A stretch of DNA of 9,571 nucleotides, from positions 1-9,571 of the IMG/VR virus record IMGVR_UViG_2703718868_000012. One strand, written 5' to 3'. A program made the position numbers and the translations under genes. Origin of the DNA: a virus. Taxonomy: Duplodnaviria > Heunggongvirae > Uroviricota > Caudoviricetes. Numbering within the stretch: position 1 is the stretch's first letter; every line of letters starts with the position of its first letter. Of this stretch, positions 1-9,571 are shown one piece after another. The notes beneath the pieces were generated by a model, which saw only the letters and a program-made list of their open reading frames with translations, was not told the origin of the DNA and did not search any database.

Positions 1-1890
1 TCATAGTGAATCTGTCCCGCCTGATTTGACCATACCGCGATAATCCAGAGCTGCCACACCTGCATCAATACGGACTTTCCAGGCCACGCCGTCAACGATA
101 AAACCTTCCTGCTGTTCAAGGTAAGGCTCGTCATTGCCATCAAGATAAGCCACCTCGATTGTGTCCGTTCCCTGTGCGGAAAGCATGTACCATTGTTTTT
201 CGCTGATATCATCAAGGCGGGGATCGACGATGATATCAAGTAGCTTGTGATACGGGTTAAAGATCCCGCTGTTTTTATCAGCCCCGAAAGGTGCGGTTGA
301 GTTAATCATCTGCAACGCGCGATCTTCCAGTGCTGCCGGAACTAAAAGGAATTTAGGCGCAATATTCAGCACTTCGCCATTTTTGTCCTTCTGTGTGCGC
401 ATCAGGTGACGTGCTGCACTAAGTCCCGGTGTTGTCAGTCCTGCTTCAATCAGGTTGCTGTGTTTTTTGTCAAACAGCGCTATTCCGTCAGAAAGTTTTA
501 CGTTGCCTGTAAGCACCAGATTAACCAGATTTCCCACCGTTCTTGATGCTGCACGGCCCATAGCCATTGGCACCGTTGATAACTGATCAAGGTCATCATT
601 GATTATCGCCTGGCGGGTAATACTGAAAATATTCCCGTAAGTAGCCAGCGCGATGGGTTCACCGCGATCGCTGGTGGTGATGTATTTATATTCTGCCCCT
701 TCCGGCACTTTGTTTAACGTTGAGAAGCCATTCATACCAACGCGGCGGGCTTCCCGGAAGTTTGAAAGGGAACCTTTTTTCGTCCACTGGCGGAATGTTT
801 CGCCGCTGTGCTCCCAGCCTGCAAGCACTGATTTTTCAGCGCCACCAGCAAGAATATCGGTAAAATCGCTGCTGCTGTGGGTGAATGCCGCGTTTACTAT
901 CTGCGAGCGTGTGCCGTAGCTGCCCGTGCTTATACCACGATGGGTTAATGATGCCTGTGCCATATCGAAAAGGCTCATCATGGCGTAAGGATTACCGCGT
1001 TCGGCCCGTTCGTGACCAAGACGCGCATTAAGCCCCTGGCGCATTGCATCGCCGGTTATGTTGCCGTTATCCGTGTACGCGTAGTAAAGATTTGCGGGGG
1101 TGGTTTTGTTTGTTGGCGTTGATTCTTTACCCATAGCGAGTAAAAGGCGTTCGCGTGCATTCTCAACGCTACATTCTGAATCAGCAAGACAACTTATAGC
1201 CAGGTCGTTATATCTTCCGTTGAACGTGCCAAACAATTCACGTATCCCGTTGAGTCGTTCCTGTTCTCCGCTGCCAGTTTTCTGGCTGATCATGTTTTTA
1301 ATATTTTCCGGCATATTTGAAAAATCTCCGATTCGTTTTGATTCAATTCGGGCCATTGCTGTAATCGCGGGTATAACCTCATCTGCGAAACCGTTAGCCT
1401 TACACTCATTGCCATCCATCCAGGTTTCCGCCTCCATCATGGCGGTGATTTCCTGTTTACTCCTGCCCGTTCTTCCGGCGTAGGTTTCTGCCATCGTGTC
1501 GCCCAGCTTGTCCATCAGGTCAGCAAAGCGGCGAACGTCGCCCGACACTCCGGCAGTAACACCACGGGGGGCATGTATCATCATCATCGCGTTTTCAGGC
1601 ATAACGATGTGATCGCCACACATGGCAATAAACGAGGCCATAGAAGCCGCCATGCCCTCAATGTGTACAATTTTCTTTGCCGGATGATTTTTCAGGGCGT
1701 TATAGATAGCCAGCCCTTCAAAGATGTCGCCACCAGGTGAATGGATGCGAAGATGGATTTCAGACGCATTACCACACGCGTTGATCTCGTCAGTAAGTGC
1801 CGATGCTTTTACACCGTACCCGCCGATCTCGTCATAAATGCGCACATAGACAACATCTGCCATAGCCTTAATGGAAAACCATGTTTTCAT
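1..1890 (-). CDS. Prohead serine protease (ClpP-like) - scaffold-like linker - HK97-fold major capsid protein, single 629-aa polypeptide
   Basis: ATG at 1890, TGA at 3-1. N-terminal ~170 aa carry ClpP-like motifs GMAASMASF (compare E. coli ClpP GQAASMGAF around the catalytic Ser) and MMMIHAPRG (ClpP MIHQP, catalytic His). Middle ~100 aa are charged and helical. C-terminal ~330 aa look like an HK97-family major capsid protein (...FNPYHKLLDIIVDPRLDD...). Confidence 0.85.
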   Translation of the reverse strand: MKTWFSIKAMADVVYVRIYDEIGGYGVKASALTDEINACGNASEIHLRIHSPGGDIFEGLAIYNALKNHPAKKIVHIEGMAASMASFIAMCGDHIVMPENAMMMIHAPRGVTAGVSGDVRRFADLMDKLGDTMAETYAGRTGRSKQEITAMMEAETWMDGNECKANGFADEVIPAITAMARIESKRIGDFSNMPENIKNMISQKTGSGEQERLNGIRELFGTFNGRYNDLAISCLADSECSVENARERLLLAMGKESTPTNKTTPANLYYAYTDNGNITGDAMRQGLNARLGHERAERGNPYAMMSLFDMAQASLTHRGISTGSYGTRSQIVNAAFTHSSSDFTDILAGGAEKSVLAGWEHSGETFRQWTKKGSLSNFREARRVGMNGFSTLNKVPEGAEYKYITTSDRGEPIALATYGNIFSITRQAIINDDLDQLSTVPMAMGRAASRTVGNLVNLVLTGNVKLSDGIALFDKKHSNLIEAGLTTPGLSAARHLMRTQKDKNGEVLNIAPKFLLVPAALEDRALQMINSTAPFGADKNSGIFNPYHKLLDIIVDPRLDDISEKQWYMLSAQGTDTIEVAYLDGNDEPYLEQQEGFIVDGVAWKVRIDAGVAALDYRGMVKSGGTDSL

Positions 1891-2081
1891 AGCCAGGCCC
1901 CTAACGTTGCCCTGTACCAGTATTCAACCGCGCTGCGTGTGATTTGTCCTTTCGTGGGTACTGGCATACCCGGGTGATTATCTTTGATGAACTGCTGATA
2001 GCGTTCGATCTTCTCCATAGTTCCGGCGTCTATGTGTACCGTGGCACTTTTATCCGGCTTTCTGGTGTTGTTCTCTGGCAT
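1887..2081 (-). CDS. Hypothetical 64-aa protein, first gene of the capsid operon
   Basis: Strong SD AAGGAGGTGG (plus 2087-2096) ~5 nt before the ATG at 2081. Stop overlaps the capsid ATG as ATGA (1887-1890). The track ORF begins 11 codons further upstream without an RBS. No recognisable motif. Confidence 0.5.
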   Translation of the reverse strand: MPENNTRKPDKSATVHIDAGTMEKIERYQQFIKDNHPGMPVPTKGQITRSAVEYWYRATLGAWL

Positions 2082-2157
2082 AAATCCACCTCCTTTTTGG
2101 TTAACGGGCATCATTATTGATCGATAAAAGTAATAGATAAATCATTTTCTACCTGAA

Positions 2158-2191
2158 AATCAGATTATGATTTTTCTGATTATTCTCACAA
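2158..2191 (-). promoter_or_regulatory. Candidate sigma70-type promoter for the capsid operon with overlapping 7-bp inverted repeat
   Basis: On the minus strand: -35 TTGTGA (plus 2186-2191), 16-nt spacer, -10 CATAAT (plus 2164-2169), about 80 nt upstream of the ATG at 2081. Inverted repeat AATCAGA (2158-2164) / TCTGATT (2175-2181) overlaps the -10. Confidence 0.3.
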
Positions 2192-2276
2192 AGGCAAAGT
2201 TATTGACGCATTTTTGCCATTGAAGCAGTATTAAGACTCGTCATCCTGGCGATAAAAACTCCTTTGTCGTGTAAAA

Positions 2277-2311
2277 GCGCCTCCGGTAACAGCAATCGGG
2301 GGCGCTTTTTT
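2277..2311 (+). terminator. Rho-independent terminator-like hairpin plus T-tract
   Basis: Stem GCGCCTCC (2277-2284) pairs with GGGGGCGC (2298-2305) with one G-U pair; 13-nt loop; followed by TTTTTT (2306-2311). The reverse complement has a weaker U-tract, so it may act partly in both directions. Confidence 0.45.
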
Positions 2312-2508
2312 GCGCCTGTTTTTTGTAAATGTTTTCGGGAACGTTCCGGTGATGAACAAAAAACAACCTGATTCGATACTAAAAATTTTTATTTCTCAAC
2401 ATATCAATAGCTTATAGTGGTGGTGATGGTGCCATAAAAATCAAAAAATGCGCCTTTTTCCGCGCCCCTCCGCCCCGTGTTCAGGCCCACCCCGCCAGGA
2501 GGACCCGT

Positions 2509-2532
2509 AAAAAAGCCGGATTGCTCCGGCTT
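2509..2532 (-). terminator. Rho-independent terminator downstream of the ssb-like gene
   Basis: Hairpin AAGCCGG (2513-2519) / CCGGCTT (2526-2532), loop ATTGCT. On the minus strand it is followed by a U-tract (plus-strand A6 at 2509-2514). Lies ~15 nt past the stop at 2547-2549. Confidence 0.6.
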
Positions 2533-2546
2533 CTGTCACTCGTCGC

Positions 2547-2969
2547 TTAAAACGGTATGTTATCCCCGTACGGATCATCATTCCCCGCCTGTTGTTTTGC
2601 CCTGTTCAGCGCGTCAGTAGCCTGGCCCTGTTGACCTTTTTTGCCGCCCAGTCGCGCCGTTCGCGCACTGATTACACTGTCTGCGATAACCTGCCAGCCC
2701 TGCCGCGTTTCTCCGTTCTGCCCAGTCCACTGGCTGATCTGCATGTTACCCGCCACGCTCAGGAGTTCACCCTTGCGGTGCCTTTCCAGTGCTTCGGCCT
2801 GTCTGCCAAATGCCAGGACGGATAACCACATCGTCGCCGTTCCGTCATCTGCCTGGCTGCACGGAAGGGGGACCGCCATACGCGCCAGCGTCATCGGTGT
2901 GCCCTTGCTGGTCTGTTTTACCTGCGGGTCGTCCACCAGCCGCCCGTAAGCGGCTATCTGTGCTGTCAT
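2547..2969 (-). CDS. ssb: Single-stranded DNA-binding protein (SSB-like, OB fold with acidic ...IPF tail)
   Basis: 140 aa. N-terminal region aligns by eye with E. coli SSB (GRL..DP.V...W..V..FG..AE....KG....V.G......W....G..R). Gly/Gln-rich linker. C-terminus DDPYGDNIPF resembles the conserved SSB tail DDDIPF. ATG at 2969 overlaps the upstream stop as ATGA. Confidence 0.8.
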   Translation of the reverse strand: MTAQIAAYGRLVDDPQVKQTSKGTPMTLARMAVPLPCSQADDGTATMWLSVLAFGRQAEALERHRKGELLSVAGNMQISQWTGQNGETRQGWQVIADSVISARTARLGGKKGQQGQATDALNRAKQQAGNDDPYGDNIPF

Positions 2970-3223
2970 GATTCCACCTCTCCGGTTTTAACGTTGATTG
3001 TTGTTACCTGTTCCGCTTCGGCAATCTCCCGCTCTGTCAGCGTGGCAAAATTTGCCGCCGTCGTGGTCATGAATGCGCTTATCAGTTCGGGATGTGCTTT
3101 CGCGTATCCTTCCCCCGTGTTGCGGTCGATGATTTTTATCGCCACTCTCAGCCAGTGCTCTGTAAGGTCAATGGCGCGGTTATGCTGCTTCTTCTGATTA
3201 TTAAGTTTTCCTGATGTGCGCAT
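2966..3223 (-). CDS. Hypothetical 85-aa protein between the origin and ssb
   Basis: ATG at 3223 with a G-rich SD-like stretch (GAGGGGG) ~13 nt upstream; 4-nt ATGA overlap with ssb. No recognisable motif. Confidence 0.5.
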   Translation of the reverse strand: MRTSGKLNNQKKQHNRAIDLTEHWLRVAIKIIDRNTGEGYAKAHPELISAFMTTTAANFATLTEREIAEAEQVTTINVKTGEVES

Positions 3224-3271
3224 TTTTATTTTTACCCCCTCGTTTAAAAAGTTTTGAGTTGTGCCTCCCCT

Positions 3272-3498
3272 TGTCTACCTTATCTACCTTACTGGCCACC
3301 ATGCCAGTAATGGCGCGGCTTTCAGTGGGGTAGAGTGCTTTTATCCACTATCTACCCCGTATCTACCTCCCTGTCTGATTCAGGTAAAATCAGGTAGAGA
3401 GGGTAGATAGTAGGTAGACAGTAAAAAAAGGCTGTCTACCCAAGTTAATGTACTGAATTAAATGTATTTTTCTTTACTCAGGTAGACAGGGTAGACAG
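3272..3498. repeat. Iteron array, putative replication origin
   Basis: Eleven copies of the core GGTAGA / TCTACC. Plus-orientation TCTACC at 3274, 3283, 3351, 3362, 3435; reverse GGTAGA at 3329, 3393, 3402, 3413, 3481, 3490. Includes tandem GGTAGACAG x2 (3481-3498) and a 9-bp inverted pair GGTAGACAG (3413-3421) / CTGTCTACC (3432-3440). AT-rich stretch 3441-3480. Sits immediately 3' of the primase gene. Confidence 0.7.
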
Positions 3499-3511
3499 CC
3501 ATTGCAACAAA

Positions 3512-5266
3512 TTATAAAAACGCGTCGCAATCGTCTGTTGTTATTGCGTTAGTCTGCGTTACTCCTTTAACTTTCCGCGTAATATATTCATGTCCGTAAA
3601 CTTTCGCGGCTGGCTTCATAGCCTTGCCAAAGTCATTTACGTTTAGCGGTTTGCTCCTGCCTGCGTACGCCATAAACGCCAGATAGACGCGGTAAAGGCT
3701 GTTTCTGGTCGTGTACTTCACTGAATCGCCACCGCCGCCCATCATCAGGCCGCGTGCTTCCTCCAGAAAATTCAGGAACTGGCAAAACTCAATAACCGGA
3801 TCCGTCTGTTGCTTTATTGCCAGTGCTTCATCACCGTCACGCTGTTCCAGTAGTAAAGCCCGTGCCTTCTCAGGGTCGGTAAAGTTCGCCAGCAATCGGC
3901 GGATAATGACAGGGATTTCAGCCGCAATCTTTTCCGGTAGCTCCCTGTCTTTTTCGGCCTCACTGACGATATTGTCGAAACGGAAAATCACGCGACGACG
4001 TGCCACACCTCCGGCCCGTTCGGTGAATATCATCGGGTTATTGTTGGTCGCCAGCACCACCGCCCTGATTACAGCCGTGAAACGCTTTTCGTATTTCGGG
4101 TTAATTTCCACGGGGTCACCGCCCGTGATTTTCTTGATGCCCGTTCCTTCGCCTGTATATTTCGGCTGGTCAGCCAGGACGATAAGGCGACTCCCGACAA
4201 CCTGCGCACGTCCACCAGCATCATCAAGCGATGTCATTTCAGCGCTTACCGTGTTCTGTTTCCCTGCCAGAAGGCTGGCTATGTGTGTGAATGTACTTTT
4301 ACCGCTCCCGCCGTCTCCGGTGGCCTCAATAAACATCTGCCAGTCGTACCGGTTCGCCATAATCATGTACAGCGCGGCACATATCCGCATCATCTTGCGC
4401 GGGTCTTTTCCGGCTGCGTGCTCAAGCCATTTATGAAAGTTTGGCGCGTTATCGCGGATGTTCTCCCCTGGTGCTGGTGGCGTGTACTCAATACTGTTGT
4501 GCGTGGTGATCCAGTTCTCCGGCGTGTGCGGGGAAAATTCCCCCGTTTTCAGGTCAAGCGCACCATTGGCAAACGGCAGCAAATCGCCGGACGGCTCGCC
4601 CATTGGTTCGGCAATAACTTTTAACGCTTCCACGGCGTTATTGATTACGCGCTTGCTGAAAGTGGCCCTGTGCTCTGAATAGATCGCCACCATTTCGCGG
4701 CTAAGTTCCATTGTGCTGACCGGACACCATACCCCGCCGCGCCATACGTGAACGATTTCACTTTCAGGATGCACGCAAACGCCATCAAATCGTCCGGCAA
4801 GAAGTTGAGCGCGCTCACTGTCCGCCATCTGCGAAAGTTGCGCCTTTTGCTTTACAGGAAGCTCAATAACCAGCCCATCAGAAAGATTCTGGCGCTCACT
4901 GGCCAGATATTCGCGCCAGTTCTCCACCTTCTGACCGTGCATACCATCAGGGTAAAAATTTGCATCCTGTACGCCTGCCGCCGCCAGCTTCTGACCAATC
5001 GCCTTTATCATTACTGGCGCAAGATATCCGGCCCTGAATATGCGCACGGATTTTCTGCCTTCCGGCACAATTTGCAGCTTATCCAGTTCTGATAACTGCT
5101 GCTCCCCAAGCCACACAGGAGGCTCATTATCTCCGGCCATACGCGCGTCATGTTCCTGCCATTGTTTCGCGTGTGACCAGGCATCACTACCCGCAAAAAT
5201 AATGACTTCTGTTTCTTTGTGTTTTATGCCGCGTGGCTGCTGTTTTACGTTCGGTGCCAGTTTCAT
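3512..5266 (-). CDS. Phage/plasmid primase, P4 family (primase-helicase, D5-like NTPase)
   Basis: 584 aa. Walker A GDGGSGKST seen directly; a Walker B-like hydrophobic stretch ...LIVLAD... follows. Overall resemblance to the P4-alpha C-terminal / D5-type replicative primase-helicases of satellites. ATG at 5266 overlaps the upstream stop as ATGA; SD AGGGG ~8 nt upstream. Confidence 0.85.
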   Translation of the reverse strand: MKLAPNVKQQPRGIKHKETEVIIFAGSDAWSHAKQWQEHDARMAGDNEPPVWLGEQQLSELDKLQIVPEGRKSVRIFRAGYLAPVMIKAIGQKLAAAGVQDANFYPDGMHGQKVENWREYLASERQNLSDGLVIELPVKQKAQLSQMADSERAQLLAGRFDGVCVHPESEIVHVWRGGVWCPVSTMELSREMVAIYSEHRATFSKRVINNAVEALKVIAEPMGEPSGDLLPFANGALDLKTGEFSPHTPENWITTHNSIEYTPPAPGENIRDNAPNFHKWLEHAAGKDPRKMMRICAALYMIMANRYDWQMFIEATGDGGSGKSTFTHIASLLAGKQNTVSAEMTSLDDAGGRAQVVGSRLIVLADQPKYTGEGTGIKKITGGDPVEINPKYEKRFTAVIRAVVLATNNNPMIFTERAGGVARRRVIFRFDNIVSEAEKDRELPEKIAAEIPVIIRRLLANFTDPEKARALLLEQRDGDEALAIKQQTDPVIEFCQFLNFLEEARGLMMGGGGDSVKYTTRNSLYRVYLAFMAYAGRSKPLNVNDFGKAMKPAAKVYGHEYITRKVKGVTQTNAITTDDCDAFL

Positions 5267-5562
5267 TTTTTGCCCCTGAATCCGTTAATCATGTTTTTCA
5301 TCTTCTGAATATTGGCGCGTGCTTTCTCCCTGCTGGTGGGCACGTTACGCGGTACGGCCTGCACAAGAGAAAAATCACGCCGGAACTGATAAACAGGCAT
5401 CACGCAATCATATTCGTAACCTTCACGGCGGTAAGTTACGCACCGTCCCGCCACGCCCTTAATCATTACCGTGCCGCCGTACTGGTCGCGGTAAATATCA
5501 CCGCGCGTAAATTTAGGGTGAGTGTTGCCACTGGCAGTTAAGCCAGAATATTTAAATTTCAT
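5263..5562 (-). CDS. Hypothetical 99-aa protein, translationally coupled to the primase
   Basis: ATG at 5562, 5 nt after the upstream TAA; stop overlaps the primase ATG. Basic protein, no motif recognised. Confidence 0.5.
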   Translation of the reverse strand: MKFKYSGLTASGNTHPKFTRGDIYRDQYGGTVMIKGVAGRCVTYRREGYEYDCVMPVYQFRRDFSLVQAVPRNVPTSREKARANIQKMKNMINGFRGKK

Positions 5563-5567
5563 TATTT

Positions 5568-5801
5568 TTATTCTCCGGTGTGCTGTTCGTTATATCTGTC
5601 GTGCAATTGGTCTATTTCTTGCAGTTCCATTATTACAGGCTCAAGAAGCGTTATTAATGCCGTGGCAATTCTTGATTTTTGTTTGTCGCGTTCATTGTCG
5701 CCAAGTGTTTCAAGCCATATGCGCAATATTTCCAGCATGTTTTCACTGTGAGAAAGTGCAAGAAATGCGCGGTATATTGTTTCAAGATAAATATCACGCA
5801 T
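5568..5801 (-). CDS. Hypothetical 77-aa protein
   Basis: ATG at 5801 with a G-rich SD-like stretch (GGGGA) ~6 nt upstream; start sits 1 nt after the upstream stop (TAATATG). Predicted helical, acidic. Confidence 0.5.
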   Translation of the reverse strand: MRDIYLETIYRAFLALSHSENMLEILRIWLETLGDNERDKQKSRIATALITLLEPVIMELQEIDQLHDRYNEQHTGE

Positions 5802-5802
5802 A

Positions 5803-6024
5803 TTAATCCCCGTCCGTTGTTTTTCTTAAAACAGCTTCTGTCACGAAATCGGCATAGTTAGCGGCAATATCAAGAATATTTAGCCCTGTATCTCTGTGCT
5901 CATCAGTGCAAAGAAAGAAAAAAGCCACCCGCATAATTTCAGATATTAACGAAAGCGCATCAACCGCATCATCAGGAACGCCGGAAAATTCTTGTTTCAG
6001 GGAATTAAAACGATCATCACGCAT
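5803..6024 (-). CDS. Hypothetical 73-aa protein (start chosen at the internal ATG after the G8 tract)
   Basis: ATG at 6024 lies 2 nt after a G8 run that can act as SD, and overlaps the upstream gene's stop by 8 nt. The track start at 6072 would overlap the upstream gene by 56 nt with no RBS. Confidence 0.45.
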   Translation of the reverse strand: MRDDRFNSLKQEFSGVPDDAVDALSLISEIMRVAFFFLCTDEHRDTGLNILDIAANYADFVTEAVLRKTTDGD

Positions 6025-6238
6025 AACCCCCCCCATTTTCACAATCAGCAACAAGAATATTTTTAGCGTCATTCAGTGACCGCGTTGCGGTGTATCGGAT
6101 ACATTCCAGGGCGAATAGTGTGTATTCTTCCCGTCCTTCCTTTTGTGCAAGCTCTGCTGTGCATTCAATATCAATAAGCGCGTGCATCAGCGTAGTGAGT
6201 GCGGCAGCTGCTGCGTCCGGTGTGGTTTTATTGTGCAT
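6017..6238 (-). CDS. Hypothetical 73-aa protein
   Basis: ATG at 6238 preceded by AGGGGGA ~6 nt upstream. The track start at 6277 is a TTG without RBS support. The last codons (...ENGGGYA) run through the G8 tract. Confidence 0.45.
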   Translation of the reverse strand: MHNKTTPDAAAAALTTLMHALIDIECTAELAQKEGREEYTLFALECIRYTATRSLNDAKNILVADCENGGGYA

Positions 6239-6428
6239 AGGTTTCCCCCTGGCGAATACGGGCGGCGAATACCGCAATACAACCGGACGGGCAACGGCTA
6301 CGCGCTTCGCGTTCCGTCCAGGCGGTTACGTGGATGATTTGAGATTCTCCGGCACTCAGTGCCAGAAAACGCCACACAAAGGCCGTTTGTGTGTGTGCTA
6401 GTCGTGGGGTATGATTTACGGCAACCAT
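6228..6428 (-). CDS. Hypothetical 66-aa protein, first ORF of the small-ORF/primase operon
   Basis: ATG at 6428 with SD GAGAGGT ~6 nt upstream; ends 11 nt inside the next ORF in another frame. No motif recognised. Confidence 0.4.
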   Translation of the reverse strand: MVAVNHTPRLAHTQTAFVWRFLALSAGESQIIHVTAWTEREARSRCPSGCIAVFAARIRQGETYAQ

Positions 6429-6502
6429 AAATTTACCTCTCTATAGTGTTTGTGGTTAGACGCCCTGCATGTGTTCCAGCACTGTGGGGCGTTGTTTTTT
6501 GG

Positions 6503-6575
6503 TGCAAGTCACCTTGAAATCTAGGTTACTTTTAGGTGACTTGCACTTCAAGTCTTTTTTTATTTTTTTTTCTCC
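6503..6575. promoter_or_regulatory. Divergent control region: 12-bp perfect inverted repeat (operator-like) followed by a hairpin and long T-tract
   Basis: TGCAAGTCACCT (6503-6514) and AGGTGACTTGCA (6534-6545) are exact reverse complements, 19-bp spacer. Second hairpin GACTTG (6538-6543) / CAAGTC (6549-6554) is followed by T7-A-T9 (6555-6571). Lies between the divergent starts at 6428 (minus) and 6613 (plus). Confidence 0.45.
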
Positions 6576-6612
6576 GTATACTGAACACCACCTAACAGTA
6601 AGGAGAACAGAG

Positions 6613-6792
6613 ATGCCAACAGGTACAACCAACAACAAGTCACAACAAAAAACTGCTAGAGTACCTCTAGACGTTTTAAGCGAAATGAATTTGGTAAAAG
6701 AAGAAAACGAAACAGACGCACAATTTATCGTTACTGCCATGCGCGGCGAAATCAAACGCCGCCAGCGTCGCAAGGCCAAAGAATCAGAATAA
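6613..6792 (+). CDS. Small basic protein, possible ribbon-helix-helix DNA-binding regulator (59 aa)
   Basis: Canonical SD AAGGAG (6600-6605) 7 nt before the ATG at 6613. Sequence ...ARVPLDVLSEMNLVKEENETDAQFIVTAMRGEIKRRQRRK fits a beta-strand / helix / loop / helix RHH pattern with a basic tail. The first ~120 nt are markedly AT-rich. The longer track ORF from 6469 would translate the palindrome and T-tract. Confidence 0.55.
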   Translation: MPTGTTNNKSQQKTARVPLDVLSEMNLVKEENETDAQFIVTAMRGEIKRRQRRKAKESE

Positions 6793-6849
6793 TCACTATC
6801 AGCGCCGTGGTGTGAGGTACTACGGCGCATTGCTTTACAGGGCAGTATC

Positions 6850-7077
6850 ATGACCAACAACACACTATCACCAATACAAGACACGCAAACGCAAGATGAT
6901 GAAATCATCCGGCAAAGGCAGTCAGAAGCCTGCGCCAGACTTGAGGAAGAACTAACCAGAACAAAAATACCACCACCAGCGCCGCGCTTAGTGCCACCAG
7001 AAAAATTTGCCCTTGAAGATTTTGTCGATAAATACCCACGGCGGCTTAAATCCGGCAAAAACCGACCGCCAGGATGA
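6850..7077 (+). CDS. Hypothetical 75-aa protein (acidic, helical N-half, Pro-rich C-half)
   Basis: ATG at 6850 with a weak GGG SD ~7 nt upstream; reading frame looks protein-like. Preceded by hairpin GCGCCGT (6802-6808) / ACGGCGC (6822-6828). Confidence 0.4.
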   Translation: MTNNTLSPIQDTQTQDDEIIRQRQSEACARLEEELTRTKIPPPAPRLVPPEKFALEDFVDKYPRRLKSGKNRPPG

Positions 7078-7196
7078 GTGCACAAGACGGAACCATGAAA
7101 CGGATTATTCCGTTTCCGGGGCGTTTGTGTGTGTATAAAGAGTAAGCTATGCTCTTTTATAGCCATAATCGTTACCTCAATTAATGGTTTGGTTAG

Positions 7197-7238
7197 AAGC
7201 CCGTTGGTGTTCATAGCGCCAGCGGGCTTTGCTTTTTG
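7197..7238 (+). terminator. Rho-independent terminator ending the 6613-7077 transcription unit
   Basis: 11-bp stem AAGCCCGTTGG (7197-7207) / CCAGCGGGCTT (7219-7229) with one G-U pair, 11-nt loop, then a U-rich tail TTGCTTTTTGTG. Confidence 0.5.
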
Positions 7239-7248
7239 TGTTGATTGT

Positions 7249-7282
7249 ATGTAATGTGTCACCACGCATAAATACATTACAT
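7249..7282 (+). promoter_or_regulatory. 9-bp perfect inverted repeat, candidate operator just upstream of the Arc-like gene
   Basis: ATGTAATGT (7249-7257) and ACATTACAT (7274-7282) are exact reverse complements, 16-bp spacer. Preceded by a TTGATT -35-like hexamer (7241-7246); ends 15 nt before the GTG start. Confidence 0.35.
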
Positions 7283-7296
7283 GAGGTGTAATTAAC

Positions 7297-7476
7297 GTGT
7301 CAACACACAAAAACGAAAGGCGTGGTAATCCTCCGTTCCAGTTCCGTTTAGATCCTGACTTACGGGAAAAGATGGAAAAGGCACAACAACATGACGGCGA
7401 TGATTCTCTTGCTGCCTGGATAAAGCGAATAATCCGCAAAGAATTACAGCAACGCGGCATAGAACCCAAAGGGTAA
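7297..7476 (+). CDS. Arc-family ribbon-helix-helix DNA-binding protein (59 aa)
   Basis: GTG at 7297 with SD GAGGTG 8 nt upstream. PPFQFRLDPDLREKMEKAQQHDGDDSLAAWIKRIIRKEL matches the Arc repressor pattern (P22 Arc PQFNLRWPREVLDLVRKVAEENGRSVNSEIYQRV). Absent from the supplied track (GTG start, under 60 aa). Confidence 0.6.
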   Translation: MSTHKNERRGNPPFQFRLDPDLREKMEKAQQHDGDDSLAAWIKRIIRKELQQRGIEPKG

Positions 7477-7571
7477 TTACATTGCCCACCAGCCTGATAG
7501 CGGCTATCATTCCCGTGCTTATGTTTGGGATCACATACACATAAGGCGCAGCAGGTTAATTGTTCACAAGG

Positions 7572-7597
7572 GCGTTCCGGCAACGGGGCGCTTTTTG
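7572..7597 (+). terminator. Terminator-like hairpin plus T5 downstream of the Arc-like gene
   Basis: Stem GCGTTCC (7572-7578) / GGGGCGC (7585-7591) including G-U pairs, loop GGCAAC, then TTTTT. No U-tract on the opposite strand. Confidence 0.35.
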
Positions 7598-7626
7598 TTA
7601 TGTTCATCGTGTCAAGCCTCACACCA

Positions 7627-7833
7627 TTACGCAGCCGTTCCGCGTGCTTCCTGCTCACGTTCTTTCATCCATGCGATTACGTCTTCCTCATACCATCCGC
7701 GACGGCGTAAACCAACGCGAAAACCCTGCGGAAATTCTCCGGCGTTGATCATGCTTTGAAGCGTGCTGTCTGCCTTGATGTGGATAAGTTTTTTTACTTC
7801 CTGGCGAAAGATGACTTTTTTGATTGCTTCCAT
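7627..7833 (-). CDS. alpA: AlpA-family transcriptional regulator / excisionase-like protein (68 aa)
   Basis: ...IKADSTLQSMINAGEFPQGFRVGLRRRGWYEEDVIAWMKE matches the AlpA pattern (helix-turn-helix, then G.FP...LG.R...W...V..W). Sits near the integrase as in P4-like and PICI elements. Confidence 0.8.
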   Translation of the reverse strand: MEAIKKVIFRQEVKKLIHIKADSTLQSMINAGEFPQGFRVGLRRRGWYEEDVIAWMKEREQEARGTAA

Positions 7834-7965
7834 CGTGATTTACCTTGTGAATCCGGTGTATTCCGGTGACAAATACGGTAAATCATCGGATACGGGTAAA
7901 AACAGTTCCCACCGTTTTTAAACTGTTAGAACCGTTTTTTATGTTGGTGATTTGAAAGGGATTTA

Positions 7966-7990
7966 TAAAAAAAGCGGCATTTCTGCCGCT
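7966..7990 (-). terminator. Rho-independent terminator after the 83-aa ORF
   Basis: Perfect 7-bp stem AGCGGCA (7973-7979) / TGCCGCT (7984-7990), loop TTTC. On the minus strand it is followed by U7 (plus-strand A-run 7967-7973). Lies 11 nt past the stop at 8001. Confidence 0.6.
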
Positions 7991-8000
7991 TTGAGGATTG

Positions 8001-8252
8001 TTACCGCCATTTTTTTGGCCTGCCTCCGGTCTTCATGGTTGCCGGACGAACTACCCTGTCGATACTTTCAGCCATATTCCTGGATGCCCCACGGGATACC
8101 AGGAAATCTACTACCTGTTTTTTTGATGGGGCCGTCGTTCTGTCCTCCGGATCGTAGGTTGACCAAAATTCATGCTGAACCATCAGGGCCAGTTGCAGCC
8201 CGTCGCAATTGCATCTGAAATTTTTTTGCATCTTAACGGTTTCATGTTTCAC
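8001..8252 (-). CDS. Hypothetical 83-aa protein between integrase and alpA
   Basis: Open frame with GTG at 8252 (weak AAGG SD) or internal ATG at 8231; basic C-terminus ...KTGGRPKKWR; own terminator. Start uncertain. Confidence 0.4.
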   Translation of the reverse strand: MKHETVKMQKNFRCNCDGLQLALMVQHEFWSTYDPEDRTTAPSKKQVVDFLVSRGASRNMAESIDRVVRPATMKTGGRPKKWR

Positions 8253-8329
8253 GGCCTTGTCGTTAAATTTGATGCAATTATACGACGGTTTTACATGGTT
8301 TTCGTAGTTTTTACTGGTTTTCTGTACAG

Positions 8330-9571
8330 CTAAACGGCTCGGATACCCCTTTTACCACTGGCGAGGGTTACGCCCGTCGCCGCAGCCTCGACAAATTCGC
8401 CCCACCAGCGCATAAGCACCACGCGTTTTTCTATGTAGTTGCTCCGGTTGTATGCCCGTCTCACTTCGTTAGTGTCGACGTGGGCAAGTGCGGCCTCGAT
8501 TACGTCCGGCTCGAATCCTTCCTCGTTCGCTGCTGTACTGAATATGGCGCGTAATCCATGAGACACCAGCACGCCAGCGAACCCCATGCGTCGTAATGCT
8601 GCGTTTGCTGTCTGGCTGTTCATTGGCTGCCGTGGGTCTTTCAGACTCGGGAAAACATAATCGCGGTGGCGGCTGATTGGTTTCATGGCCTCCAGCACCG
8701 CCATAGCCTGACCGGAAAGTGGGATAACGTGATCCCTGCGCATCTTCATGCGTCCGGCGGGTATCGTCCAGCGTTGCGCGTCCAGGTCGATTTCATCCCA
8801 CCGCGTTGATGACGCTTCGGCGGGACGGGTTACGGTCAGTAACTGCCATTCAATCAGTAATCTGGTCTGCCGTTCTGTTGCCGATACTGATAAAGCCTGC
8901 ATAAGCTCCGGCAACTGTTCGGGGCGGATTGTTGGCATATGTTTTTTTACAGGGGAGGGGAACGCCTTACGCACATTCATAGCCGGATTGGCATCAATCA
9001 GCCCACTGTTGGCGGCGTAATCCATTACCTCATTAACGCGCTGTAAAACCCGTTTGAGTGTTTCCAGGTTGCCGCGCTCCTTGATGGGGGTAAGCACCTC
9101 AACGAACCTGCGAGCGGTCAGGGTGTCTATTGGGGTGTTGCCGATGAACGGGAATACATATTTATCCAGCGATCGCCAGATGTCTTTAATCGTGTTGGGG
9201 GCCAGATTCTGGCTGATTTTCACCTGGTACCATGCCGCCGCCACATTTTCGAACGTGTTCCCTTGTCTTCGGGCCTCTGCCTCTCGTTTTTTCTTCTCAT
9301 GGCCCTGCGGGTCAGTTCCGGCACTGATTAACGCTCTGTACTCGCTACGGCGTTTTCTGGCATCAGCCAGGGAAACATCATCAAGCGATCCAAAACTCAG
9401 CAATATTCTTTTTTTGTCCGATGGCCGGTAGTAGGAAAATCGCCAGAGTTTTGATCCGGACGGTTTGACCAGGAGAAAAAGCCCTCCGCCGTCCTGTAGG
9501 GTGTATTCCTTTTCCGCTGGTCTGGCTGCTTTGATCTGCACCGTGGTTAATGGGGGTGTTTTTCTCGCCAT
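8330..9571 (-). CDS. int: Site-specific tyrosine integrase, P4 / CP4-57 type
   Basis: 413 aa. N-terminus MARKTPPLTTVQIKAARPAEKEYTLQDGGGLFLLVKPSGSKLWRFSYY is typical of P4-family integrase arm-binding domains. C-terminal catalytic region carries HGLR... and ...RAYNRSNY (candidate His/Arg/Tyr residues). ATG is at the very last bases of the window, so upstream signals are unseen. Confidence 0.9.
   Translation of the reverse strand: MARKTPPLTTVQIKAARPAEKEYTLQDGGGLFLLVKPSGSKLWRFSYYRPSDKKRILLSFGSLDDVSLADARKRRSEYRALISAGTDPQGHEKKKREAEARRQGNTFENVAAAWYQVKISQNLAPNTIKDIWRSLDKYVFPFIGNTPIDTLTARRFVEVLTPIKERGNLETLKRVLQRVNEVMDYAANSGLIDANPAMNVRKAFPSPVKKHMPTIRPEQLPELMQALSVSATERQTRLLIEWQLLTVTRPAEASSTRWDEIDLDAQRWTIPAGRMKMRRDHVIPLSGQAMAVLEAMKPISRHRDYVFPSLKDPRQPMNSQTANAALRRMGFAGVLVSHGLRAIFSTAANEEGFEPDVIEAALAHVDTNEVRRAYNRSNYIEKRVVLMRWWGEFVEAAATGVTLASGKRGIRAV

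Follow-up and report, generated by a model that had tools for sequence, protein, structure and literature searches.

A protease-scaffold-capsid gene in a probable cos-type phage-inducible chromosomal island of the EcCICFT073 family from Escherichia coli

Why should a small element with the integration and replication genes of a phage satellite carry, shortly after its gene for a single-stranded DNA-binding protein (SSB), one gene coding for a protease, a scaffold and a capsid, and does it build a shell of its own? The question is raised by positions 1 to 9,571 of the IMG/VR virus record IMGVR_UViG_2703718868_000012, a stretch of 9,571 nucleotides which we analyzed whole and call the window. 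An earlier reading made from its letters without database searches (the sequence-only reading) had described a P4-type integrase, an AlpA regulator, a P4-family primase, iterons, ssb, a small open reading frame (ORF) and a protease-scaffold-capsid gene in this order, and had taken the element for a satellite of the phage-inducible chromosomal island (PICI) or P4-like kind. These genes were found in the described order, AlpA being the one weak identification. We consider it probable, at roughly 85%, that the window is nearly all of a cos-type (cohesive-end) Gram-negative PICI of the EcCICFT073 family. The island is an ordinary member of a published satellite family and not a self-sufficient capsid-building element. 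The features on which this reading leans, with protein lengths in amino acids (aa) and all the genes on the minus strand, are:

8330..9571, minus strand: tyrosine integrase (int), P4-type, 413 aa (Pfam Arm-DNA-bind_3, Phage_int_M and Phage_integrase)
7627..7833, minus strand: AlpA-like helix-turn-helix regulator/excisionase, 68 aa (PF05930 and HTH_17, both below gathering score)
3512..5266, minus strand: primase/replicase, 584 aa, P4 family with a D5-type helicase part (Pfam D5_N, DUF5906 and Pox_D5)
3272..3497, no strand assigned: putative replication origin, an AT-rich stretch surrounded by 10 iterons TNTCTACC that occur in either orientation (repeat count)
2547..2969, minus strand: SSB, 140 aa (PF00436, E=5e-15; TIGR00621)
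2360..2506, minus strand: cosA, putative helper-type cohesive-end site with cosQ-like GGGTCCTCC, core CACGGGGCGGAGGGGCGCGG and a 100-nt cosB-like right arm
1887..2081, minus strand: satellite-specific small ORF, 64 aa (phrog_4934), with a strong AGGAGG ribosome-binding site
1..1890, minus strand: tripartite capsid gene, 629 aa, ClpP-like prohead protease/scaffold-like/HK97-type capsid (Pfam, PHROG and NCBIfam)
L002:11921-12080, in a related island, just beyond window position 1 and after the capsid gene: cosB, putative second cos copy (similarity)

The window is the reverse complement of L010:10001-19571, where L010 is contig LPWV01000098.1 of the E. coli assembly GCA_001606625.1, the one contig in the genome collection on which this integrase protein is recorded. 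Its edges are exactly the stop codon of the capsid gene (position 1) and the start codon of int (position 9571). A tRNA scan of the window found none, and the relevant tRNA lies just outside, beyond position 9571: in the source contig the attachment (att) core TTTAGTTATACGCTTAGTTATACGG adjoins int at L010 9915-9939 and constitutes attL, tRNA-Pro(GGG) is located at L010 9706-9782, 218 bp from int, and yejM lies beyond. At the other end the source contig stops 71 nt past the capsid gene, inside the second cos core (...CACGGGGCGGGCGG; L010:19572-19642). The relative L002, with 99.8% identity to window 1-7237, continues 3' of the capsid gene with a terminator, cosB, a 93-aa ORF, the att repeat (attR) at L002 12718, yejO and narP, and its island closes about 0.85 kb past the capsid gene, which gives about 10.75 kb for the whole island. 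The right end through attR to yejO/narP was seen gene by gene or in sequence in L001 (whose capsid protein has four residue differences from that of the window), L002 and L009, and L003, L004 and L006-L008, at the yejM site, have equal gene order and spacing up to narP. Near-identical islands are bordered on either side by chromosomal genes (yejM; yejO/narP), and the island itself lies between yejM and yejO, at an integration site about 130 bp downstream of tRNA-Pro(GGG). Tail, lysis, portal and terminase genes are absent from the gene lists of eight islands encoding an identical capsid protein and of L001 (RefSeq). The att repeats and the tRNA next to int, which the sequence-only reading had proposed to look for, are thus present, attR being taken from L002, and the assignment to the satellites is borne out by relatives of about 10.75 kb bounded by att repeats. 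The full prophage gene set between such repeats, which would have made this an ordinary prophage, was found in none of the relatives.

The att repeat was recovered as a common substring. It equals the core given for the yejM-luxR PICIs (Table S1, PMC6092414), with one base different in the published core as read from the PDF text. EcCIATCC25922, EcCI11128 and EcCI11368.1, whose sequences were compared, use this att site, and EcCIED1a.1, SdCI1012 and SbCISb277 are listed at the same site as yejM-luxR PICIs (Table S1, PMC6092414). The break of the source contig falls in a 75-bp repeat shared by cosA and cosB; contig breaks are consistent with assembly failure at this repeat, and alternatively they may be genuine cos-cut ends in the sequenced DNA. 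The identical capsid protein was found in many E. coli assemblies, and the longest contig bearing it is only 2-5 kb in 126 of 236 index blocks, which likewise fits assembly breaks at the cosA/cosB repeat.

The genes of the window fit one to one the four zones described for PICIs, which are in order integration, dynamic, replication and late (PMC10111431). An integrase at one end with att direct repeats, a primase-replicase and then an iteron origin, a capsid homologue (the fusion at 1-1890) behind the replication module, two helper-type cos sites through which packaging is predicted, from similarity, to be hijacked without terS or Rpp, and a small size of about 10.75 kb in L002 without tail, lysis, portal or terL genes together place the island among the PICIs. 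As the sequence-only reading had stated, the stretch from ssb to the capsid gene holds neither a terminase nor a portal ORF. That reading had taken the resulting gene order for unusual, and on this point it was mistaken: the order is normal for the family, in which a capsid homologue behind the replication module is a published core component. 'Capsid morphogenesis' is one of five core components in the PICI model (PMC10085698), and 21 of the 29 reference Gram-negative PICIs have a capsid gene (PMC10111431). Membership in other classes found no support. Like P4-like satellites, the island has a P4-type primase and a P4-type integrase; their Psu, Delta and Sid families were unmatched in Pfam and PHROGs. 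Within the att repeats there were none of the repressor/immunity, terminase, portal, tail and lysis genes of an ordinary lambdoid prophage. Portal, adaptor/connector, terS, terL and HNH genes, which characterize capsid-forming PICIs (cf-PICIs), are absent from the window and from complete related islands. The island also differs from helper-embedded PICIs (HE-PICIs; PMC10111431, sites A:Terminase and C:CLP_protease) in being chromosomal, next to tRNA-Pro, and not inside a prophage, while it shares their four-zone organization and has relatives inserted at those very sites.

In relation to EcCICFT073 and its family the left half has the same succession of int, AlpA-like gene, accessory genes (YlcI/YnfO, Icd-like), DUF4222, primase, iteron origin, 85-aa ORF and SSB, and the right half that of cos, small ORF, capsid homologue, cos, 93-aa ORF and attR. 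The size is similar as well (about 9-11.4 kb in the family; PMC6092414, PMC6739421), the 93-aa ORF is 89% identical to the one in CFT073, and there are two cos sites, as reported there. The differences lie in the late zone. Where the window island has the 629-aa fusion, CFT073 has a lambda E-like capsid and a D-like decoration protein; the island is without the Rpp or TerS-like gene of the family; its cos and cosB-like arm match lambdoid phages other than lambda, whereas CFT073 has lambda cosN with a divergent cosB; and its small ORF is unrelated to the 68-aa ORF of CFT073. The cassette of CFT073, ATCC 25922 and IHE3034 consists of the lambda E-like capsid, the D-like decoration protein and an Rpp- or TerS-like gene, and that of EcCI11128 and EcCI11368.1 of a TerS-like gene and a 307-aa capsid protein. 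EcCIIHE3034, considered as a published carrier of the fusion, was rejected, as it holds the lambda-type cassette.

The cos sites were first spotted by eye and then checked against phage sequences. Over 133 nt cosA shares 92% identity with the non-coding sequence that directly precedes terS in 1720a-02 and CP-1639; its identity is about 88% to the matching region of Shiga toxin (Stx) phages and about 80% to that of mEp460, and the genome record of phage mEp460_4F5 starts exactly at the core CACGGGGCGGAGGGGCGCGG. A search with lambda cosN (GGGCGGCGACCT) gave matches at chance level, none of them intergenic. The cores of cosA and cosB are nearly alike and their right arms differ in phage match: that of cosA agrees with 1720a-02 at 91 of 100 positions and with VT1-Sakai at 72, and that of cosB with VT1-Sakai at 86 of 100 and with 1720a-02 at 69. 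This suggests that the two sites equip one satellite for two helper sub-lineages. An Rpp or TerS gene is absent from the island according to tblastn with RppA, with the TerS-like/DUF1441 proteins of EcCIATCC25922, EcCI11128 and L021, and with phage TerS. In EcCICFT073, Rpp adapts lambda TerS to the divergent cosB (PMC6739421); if the helper terminase recognizes the cos sites of the window island directly, no such adaptor gene would be needed. Mixed cos sets seem common in the EcCICFT073 family. For example, EcCIATCC25922 (L013:8331, 10771, 11710) was seen to have a Sakai-type cos after ssb and two lambda-type cos sites, together with a lambda-type capsid cassette.

The capsid gene is of the tripartite type known from Gifsy-2. 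In its product the protease (residues about 1-185, with the Ser83 and His106 motifs kept), the scaffold-like linker (about 186-300) and the capsid domain (about 300-629) follow each other; CLP_protease matches with E=3e-33, and NF045540, 'ClpP-like prohead protease/major capsid protein fusion', with 891 bits at a cut-off of 475. The sequence-only reading had made its proposal depend on a capsid-family hit for the C-terminal domain, and such a hit is there (Phage_capsid_4, E=8e-55). Relatives in phages are the fusions of VT1-Sakai/Stx phages, CP-1639, 1720a-02, mEp460, cdtI, mEp043 and Gifsy-2. The three-part gene can be aligned with those of Gifsy-2-type phages over the full length, at 50-55% identity (50-52% for lambdoid phage fusions by tblastn, 54-55% in MAFFT alignments), and the protease motifs AASMAS (Ser) and MMIH (His) are invariant in the alignment with the phage proteins. 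In these lambdoid phages the head genes are ordered TerS-TerL-W-portal-fusion. Unlike them, the island gene resides in a satellite without terminase, portal and cement genes, and is preceded by a satellite-only small ORF where the phage fusion is preceded by the portal gene. The satellite fusion is also without a Pro/Ala-rich linker of 29-35 aa. A search of PDB sequences with the fusion gave ClpP matches only and no solved capsid relative detectable by sequence. The AlphaFold2 (AF2) model, from a shallow alignment of 13 sequences, is confident in the ClpP part only, with predicted local distance difference test (pLDDT) values below 50 for residues 326-629.

The fusion is under strong purifying selection. 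Compared with an allele that is 91% identical it has 167 synonymous and 68 non-synonymous differences, with a ratio of non-synonymous to synonymous rates (dN/dS) of 0.087 (protease 0.125, scaffold part 0.076, capsid part 0.073), and is thus at least as constrained as the phage pair 1720a-02 and mEp460 (dN/dS 0.166). Of 5426 complete E. coli genomes, 144 have a satellite-type fusion, which is full length in 143; Shiga-toxin producers are numerous among the 144. The fusion also exists in a second PICI lineage, with a length of 637-638 aa and 64% identity to the one in the window; this lineage is widespread at cspD-clpS and occurs at one other site (L023, next to ung and rpoD). Both PICI lineages lack the Pro/Ala-rich stretch found in the phage versions between protease and scaffold, the deletion falling at about residues 200-215 of the window fusion (nt ~1245-1290) and including part of the first scaffold helix. 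Next after the fusion of the 637-aa lineage comes a DUF1441 protein (L021:11171-11656) with an N-terminus near that of 1720a-02 TerS (MDRELKNL.LNI.QLAA...), likely a TerS-derived adaptor, and this gene is absent from the window island.

The small ORF overlaps the start of the fusion by ATGA and is in this way translationally coupled to the capsid gene. It had no tblastn match in 50,697 phage records, while its homologues always precede the PICI fusion gene in E. coli and Klebsiella, and a homologous sequence is also present in Salmonella. Its AF2 model has a pLDDT of 65 and gave no Foldseek match with E<1; the order of its secondary-structure elements suggests a ribbon-helix-helix protein. The low dN/dS of the fusion, the second lineage with its shared linker loss and the conserved satellite-only small ORF lead us to conclude that the fusion is a selected, long-resident satellite gene, neither a relic nor fresh cargo. 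The cassette (window 1 to about 2250) is at the same time nucleotide-identical across the islands L003-L009, for which identity falls to 75-94% in the ssb, origin and primase regions; the break lies near window 2250-2500, directly before cosA or at it. An identical cassette on backbones of such divergence indicates that it moves between backbones by recombination and that the exchange was recent.

Which phages could serve as helpers is indicated by relatives that reside in them. E. coli islands with the 91%-identical fusion sit in the TerL gene of a prophage (L027:9001-16580, L028) that is 94-99% identical to 1720a-02, its identity to this phage being 92-99% in the TerL C-terminus, W, portal and fusion. 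In Klebsiella, islands that have a 638-aa fusion and a homologue of the small ORF (L029-L031) sit in the prophage's own ClpP-capsid fusion gene, and each of these carries its own intact copy of the fusion. Of the 5426 complete E. coli genomes, 2072 contain a portal and fusion module of the 1720a-02 type, and in strains 2012C-4431, 89-3156 and ST130 this module co-resides with the PICI cassette. The cos sites and the helper-embedded relatives together make 1720a-02-type and Stx-type lambdoid phages the likely candidate helpers. As a side observation, strain 2012C-4431 (E. coli O178:H19, NZ_CP024289.1) has two cassette islands, one at yejM/tRNA-Pro and one at ycfD-phoQ, the site of EcCICFT073, along with a prophage whose portal and fusion module is 99.8% identical to that of 1720a-02. 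The cassette of L025, at ycfD-phoQ, has 98% nucleotide identity to that of the window and its island closes after the 93-aa ORF; the islands of the 637-aa lineage at cspD-clpS close likewise.

By analogy with EcCICFT073, Int and the AlpA-like regulator would excise the island after induction of a lambdoid helper. The P4-family primase, the iteron origin and SSB, which are observed as sequence features, would then replicate it, and the helper's own terminase would recognize both cos sites, cosA in the case of the 1720a-02/CP-1639 sub-lineage and cosB in the case of VT1-Sakai/Stx phages. Most likely, concatemers of about four units would be packaged into helper-sized heads with portal, tails and lysis provided by the helper, because four units of 10.75 kb (43 kb) fit the helper genomes (42.8-47 kb by the lengths of phage records) and because EcCICFT073 behaves so. 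In the capsid step the product of the fusion would enter or compete in prohead assembly on the helper portal and bias assembly to the satellite. The fusion would accordingly be a 'capsid morphogenesis' component that alters or competes in proheads built on the helper portal, and not an autonomous capsid module; this is the weakest step of the proposed mechanism, held tentatively and at slightly less than even odds.

Several points weigh against this reading. In EcCICFT073 deletion of the capsid homologue (lambda-type c1499) or of the decoration homologue changed neither transfer nor interference, and the DNA of that island is packaged at phage size (PMC6092414); by this analogy the fusion may be dispensable as well, and its role in assembly is a conjecture. 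The right boundary of the island rests on relatives, the source contig being without a right flank of its own. The HK97 fold of the capsid part is supported by sequence profiles, with low confidence in AF2, the identity of AlpA leans weakly on HMM (hidden Markov model) scores below threshold, both cos sites owe their assignment to similarity, and the cassette as a whole is known here from sequence alone.

The sequence-only reading had offered two proposals for the capsid gene. A capsid-forming satellite in the established sense did not hold up, as portal, connectors, terS, terL and HNH are all absent; a reduced element that makes its own shell and is packaged by a helper we regard as unlikely. 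In that case the tripartite protein would form satellite shells on the helper portal, possibly smaller ones for a single unit of 10.75 kb, and from the helper the island would need no more than portal, terminase, tails and lysis. This one gene does give protease, scaffold and shell in the related phages, all three domains are under purifying selection with the catalytic motifs intact, the shortened protease-scaffold linker is common to both PICI lineages, and the small ORF is a conserved and satellite-specific partner. However, the capsid gene of EcCICFT073 is dispensable and its DNA is found in phage-sized heads (PMC6092414), the island has one quarter of the helper genome length and fits full-size heads, and nucleation on the helper portal by a protein only about 55% identical to that of the helper is purely hypothetical. 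The more specific version, in which fusion and small ORF build satellite-only shells, possibly of smaller triangulation (T) number by way of the short linker, is a shade less likely still; if true, it would give a minimal 'one-gene capsid former' situated between classical PICIs, which use helper capsid proteins, and cf-PICIs, which have a full head module of their own. The cassette could also be selfish or structural cargo without a role in the particle, providing homology for cassette exchange or for integration into the helper, or a back-up copy of the capsid gene for cases in which a helper-embedded relative disrupts that of the helper, as proposed in PMC10111431. The insertion of relatives in the helper's TerL gene or in its own fusion gene would agree with such a role, as would the identity of the cassette across islands whose neighboring regions are 75-94% identical, with a tract edge at about 2250-2500. 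Protein identity of 50-55% leaves no useful nucleotide homology with the helper gene, though, dN/dS of 0.09 in all three domains points to selection on the protein itself, and the window island interrupts no helper gene at its chromosomal site, which makes cargo rather improbable. Finally, the remaining head, packaging and tail genes of a cf-PICI or reduced prophage could be imagined to the right of the window, where the source contig ends 71 nt past the capsid gene and its own flank is unseen. Islands with the same capsid protein nevertheless reach attR about 0.85 kb further on and then yejO/narP, L025 (ycfD-phoQ) and the 637-aa lineage (cspD-clpS) also end after the 93-aa ORF, none of the related islands holds a portal, terL, connector, tail or holin gene, and a break inside the 75-bp cosA/cosB repeat is a typical assembly break. 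We take this last possibility as close to refuted.

Two published systems help to place a presumably helper-dependent PICI with a capsid gene. SaPIbov5, with its Ccm protein (PMC6893505, PMC8569155), is likewise a cos-packaged satellite with helper cos and a diverged homologue of the major capsid protein. It belongs to an unrelated lineage and host, Ccm consists of the capsid domain without protease and scaffold, and redirection of capsid size is established for Ccm, whereas the window fusion is known here from its sequence. The cf-PICI EcCIEDL933 (bioRxiv 10.1101/2022.09.08.507074) resembles the island in the int/alpA/primase left half and in having a satellite HK97-type capsid and prohead protease, and differs in the portal, adaptor/connector, terS, terL and HNH genes that the island lacks and in length (about 15 against about 10.75 kb). 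That PICIs of this family are present in a large share of E. coli genomes is already known, and a capsid homologue is part of the published definition. Particular to this island are the tripartite cassette, the satellite-specific partner ORF, the linker deletion, two helper-specific cos sites without an adaptor gene, and helpers that can be named. The wider question is why satellites keep capsid genes that were found dispensable in the sole published knockout. For this question the cassette is a good test case, with a complete protease-scaffold-capsid polyprotein under selection as strong as in phages, a satellite-specific partner ORF, the linker deletion and likely helpers that are nameable. 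These likely helpers, Stx-type and 1720a-02-type lambdoid phages, are common in Shiga-toxin-producing E. coli, and if it is true that the fusion alters capsid assembly, the spread of Stx phages and of islands in pathogenic E. coli would be affected.

The remaining features of the window are the following:

8001..8231, minus strand: hypothetical ORF, 76 aa, between int and alpA (called in the source contig and relatives)
6613..7476, plus strand: divergent accessory zone of three small ORFs (source-contig gene calls, RefSeq names in relatives)
7297-7476, plus strand: accessory ORF, 59 aa, YlcI/YnfO-like in relatives (gene call, relatives' names)
6850-7077, plus strand: accessory ORF, 75 aa (source-contig gene call)
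6613-6792, plus strand: accessory ORF, 59 aa (source-contig gene call)
5568..6428, minus strand: four small ORFs (Icd-like 6228-6428; 6017-6238; 5803-6024; 5568-5801)
5263..5562, minus strand: DUF4222 protein, overlapping the start of the primase gene (PF13973, E=2e-23)
2966..3223, minus strand: ORF of the replication zone, 85 aa, conserved in PICIs (phrog_1231, E=1e-47)
2509..2533, minus strand: terminator-like hairpin GAAGCCGGAGCAATCCGGCTTTTTT closing the replication operon (read from sequence)

In the replication module the primase matches TIGR01613 'primase, P4 family' with 109.5 bits at a cut-off of 108.7 and phrog_864, DNA primase, with E=2e-175. The iteron TNTCTACC occurs 10 times in 3272-3497, as against 0.54 expected for the whole window, a count reached in none of 200 shuffles. 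The 85-aa ORF is shared with EcCICFT073 and EcCIIHE3034. The hairpin GAAGCCGGAGCAATCCGGCTTTTTT sits before the cos site in all related islands, and the spacer between the SSB gene and the 64-aa ORF measures 465 bp. It was also observed that the islands sharing the capsid cassette (L003-L009) carry different integrases and replication modules, the latter with a primase or a RepA helicase.

In the integration zone the integrase matches NCBIfam PRK09692 with 552 bits (cut-off 434). The AlpA-like protein has a weak match to PF05930 (E=0.003, under the gathering score), a match to PHROG 66/2790, 'excisionase and transcriptional regulator', with E=1e-7, and none in NCBIfam; the equivalent gene in related islands does match PF05930, and the position is that of alpA in EcCICFT073. 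No family match was found for the 76-aa ORF (8001..8231) in PHROG, Pfam and PADLOC searches, nor for the accessory zone 6613..7476 in Pfam, PADLOC and Rfam. PADLOC defence models had no match among ten proteins of the window, Rfam, including the C4 and isrK RNAs reported in some PICIs, had none at E<=0.1, and the small ORFs gave nothing usable against Pfam at E<=5 and NCBIfam. A 400-aa ORF at 6456-7658 on the minus strand was rejected as spurious, being unannotated, overlapping real small plus-strand genes and having an odd composition. The accessory zone is mosaic between islands, and a further sign of mosaicism is that window 7238-7480, including the YlcI/YnfO-like ORF (7297-7476, plus strand), is unmatched in the closest related islands. 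The ORFs of 5568..6428 match PHROGs of unknown function and stand in the same order as in EcCICFT073, and the Icd-like gene among them matches NF033153 phage_ICD_like with 63 bits.

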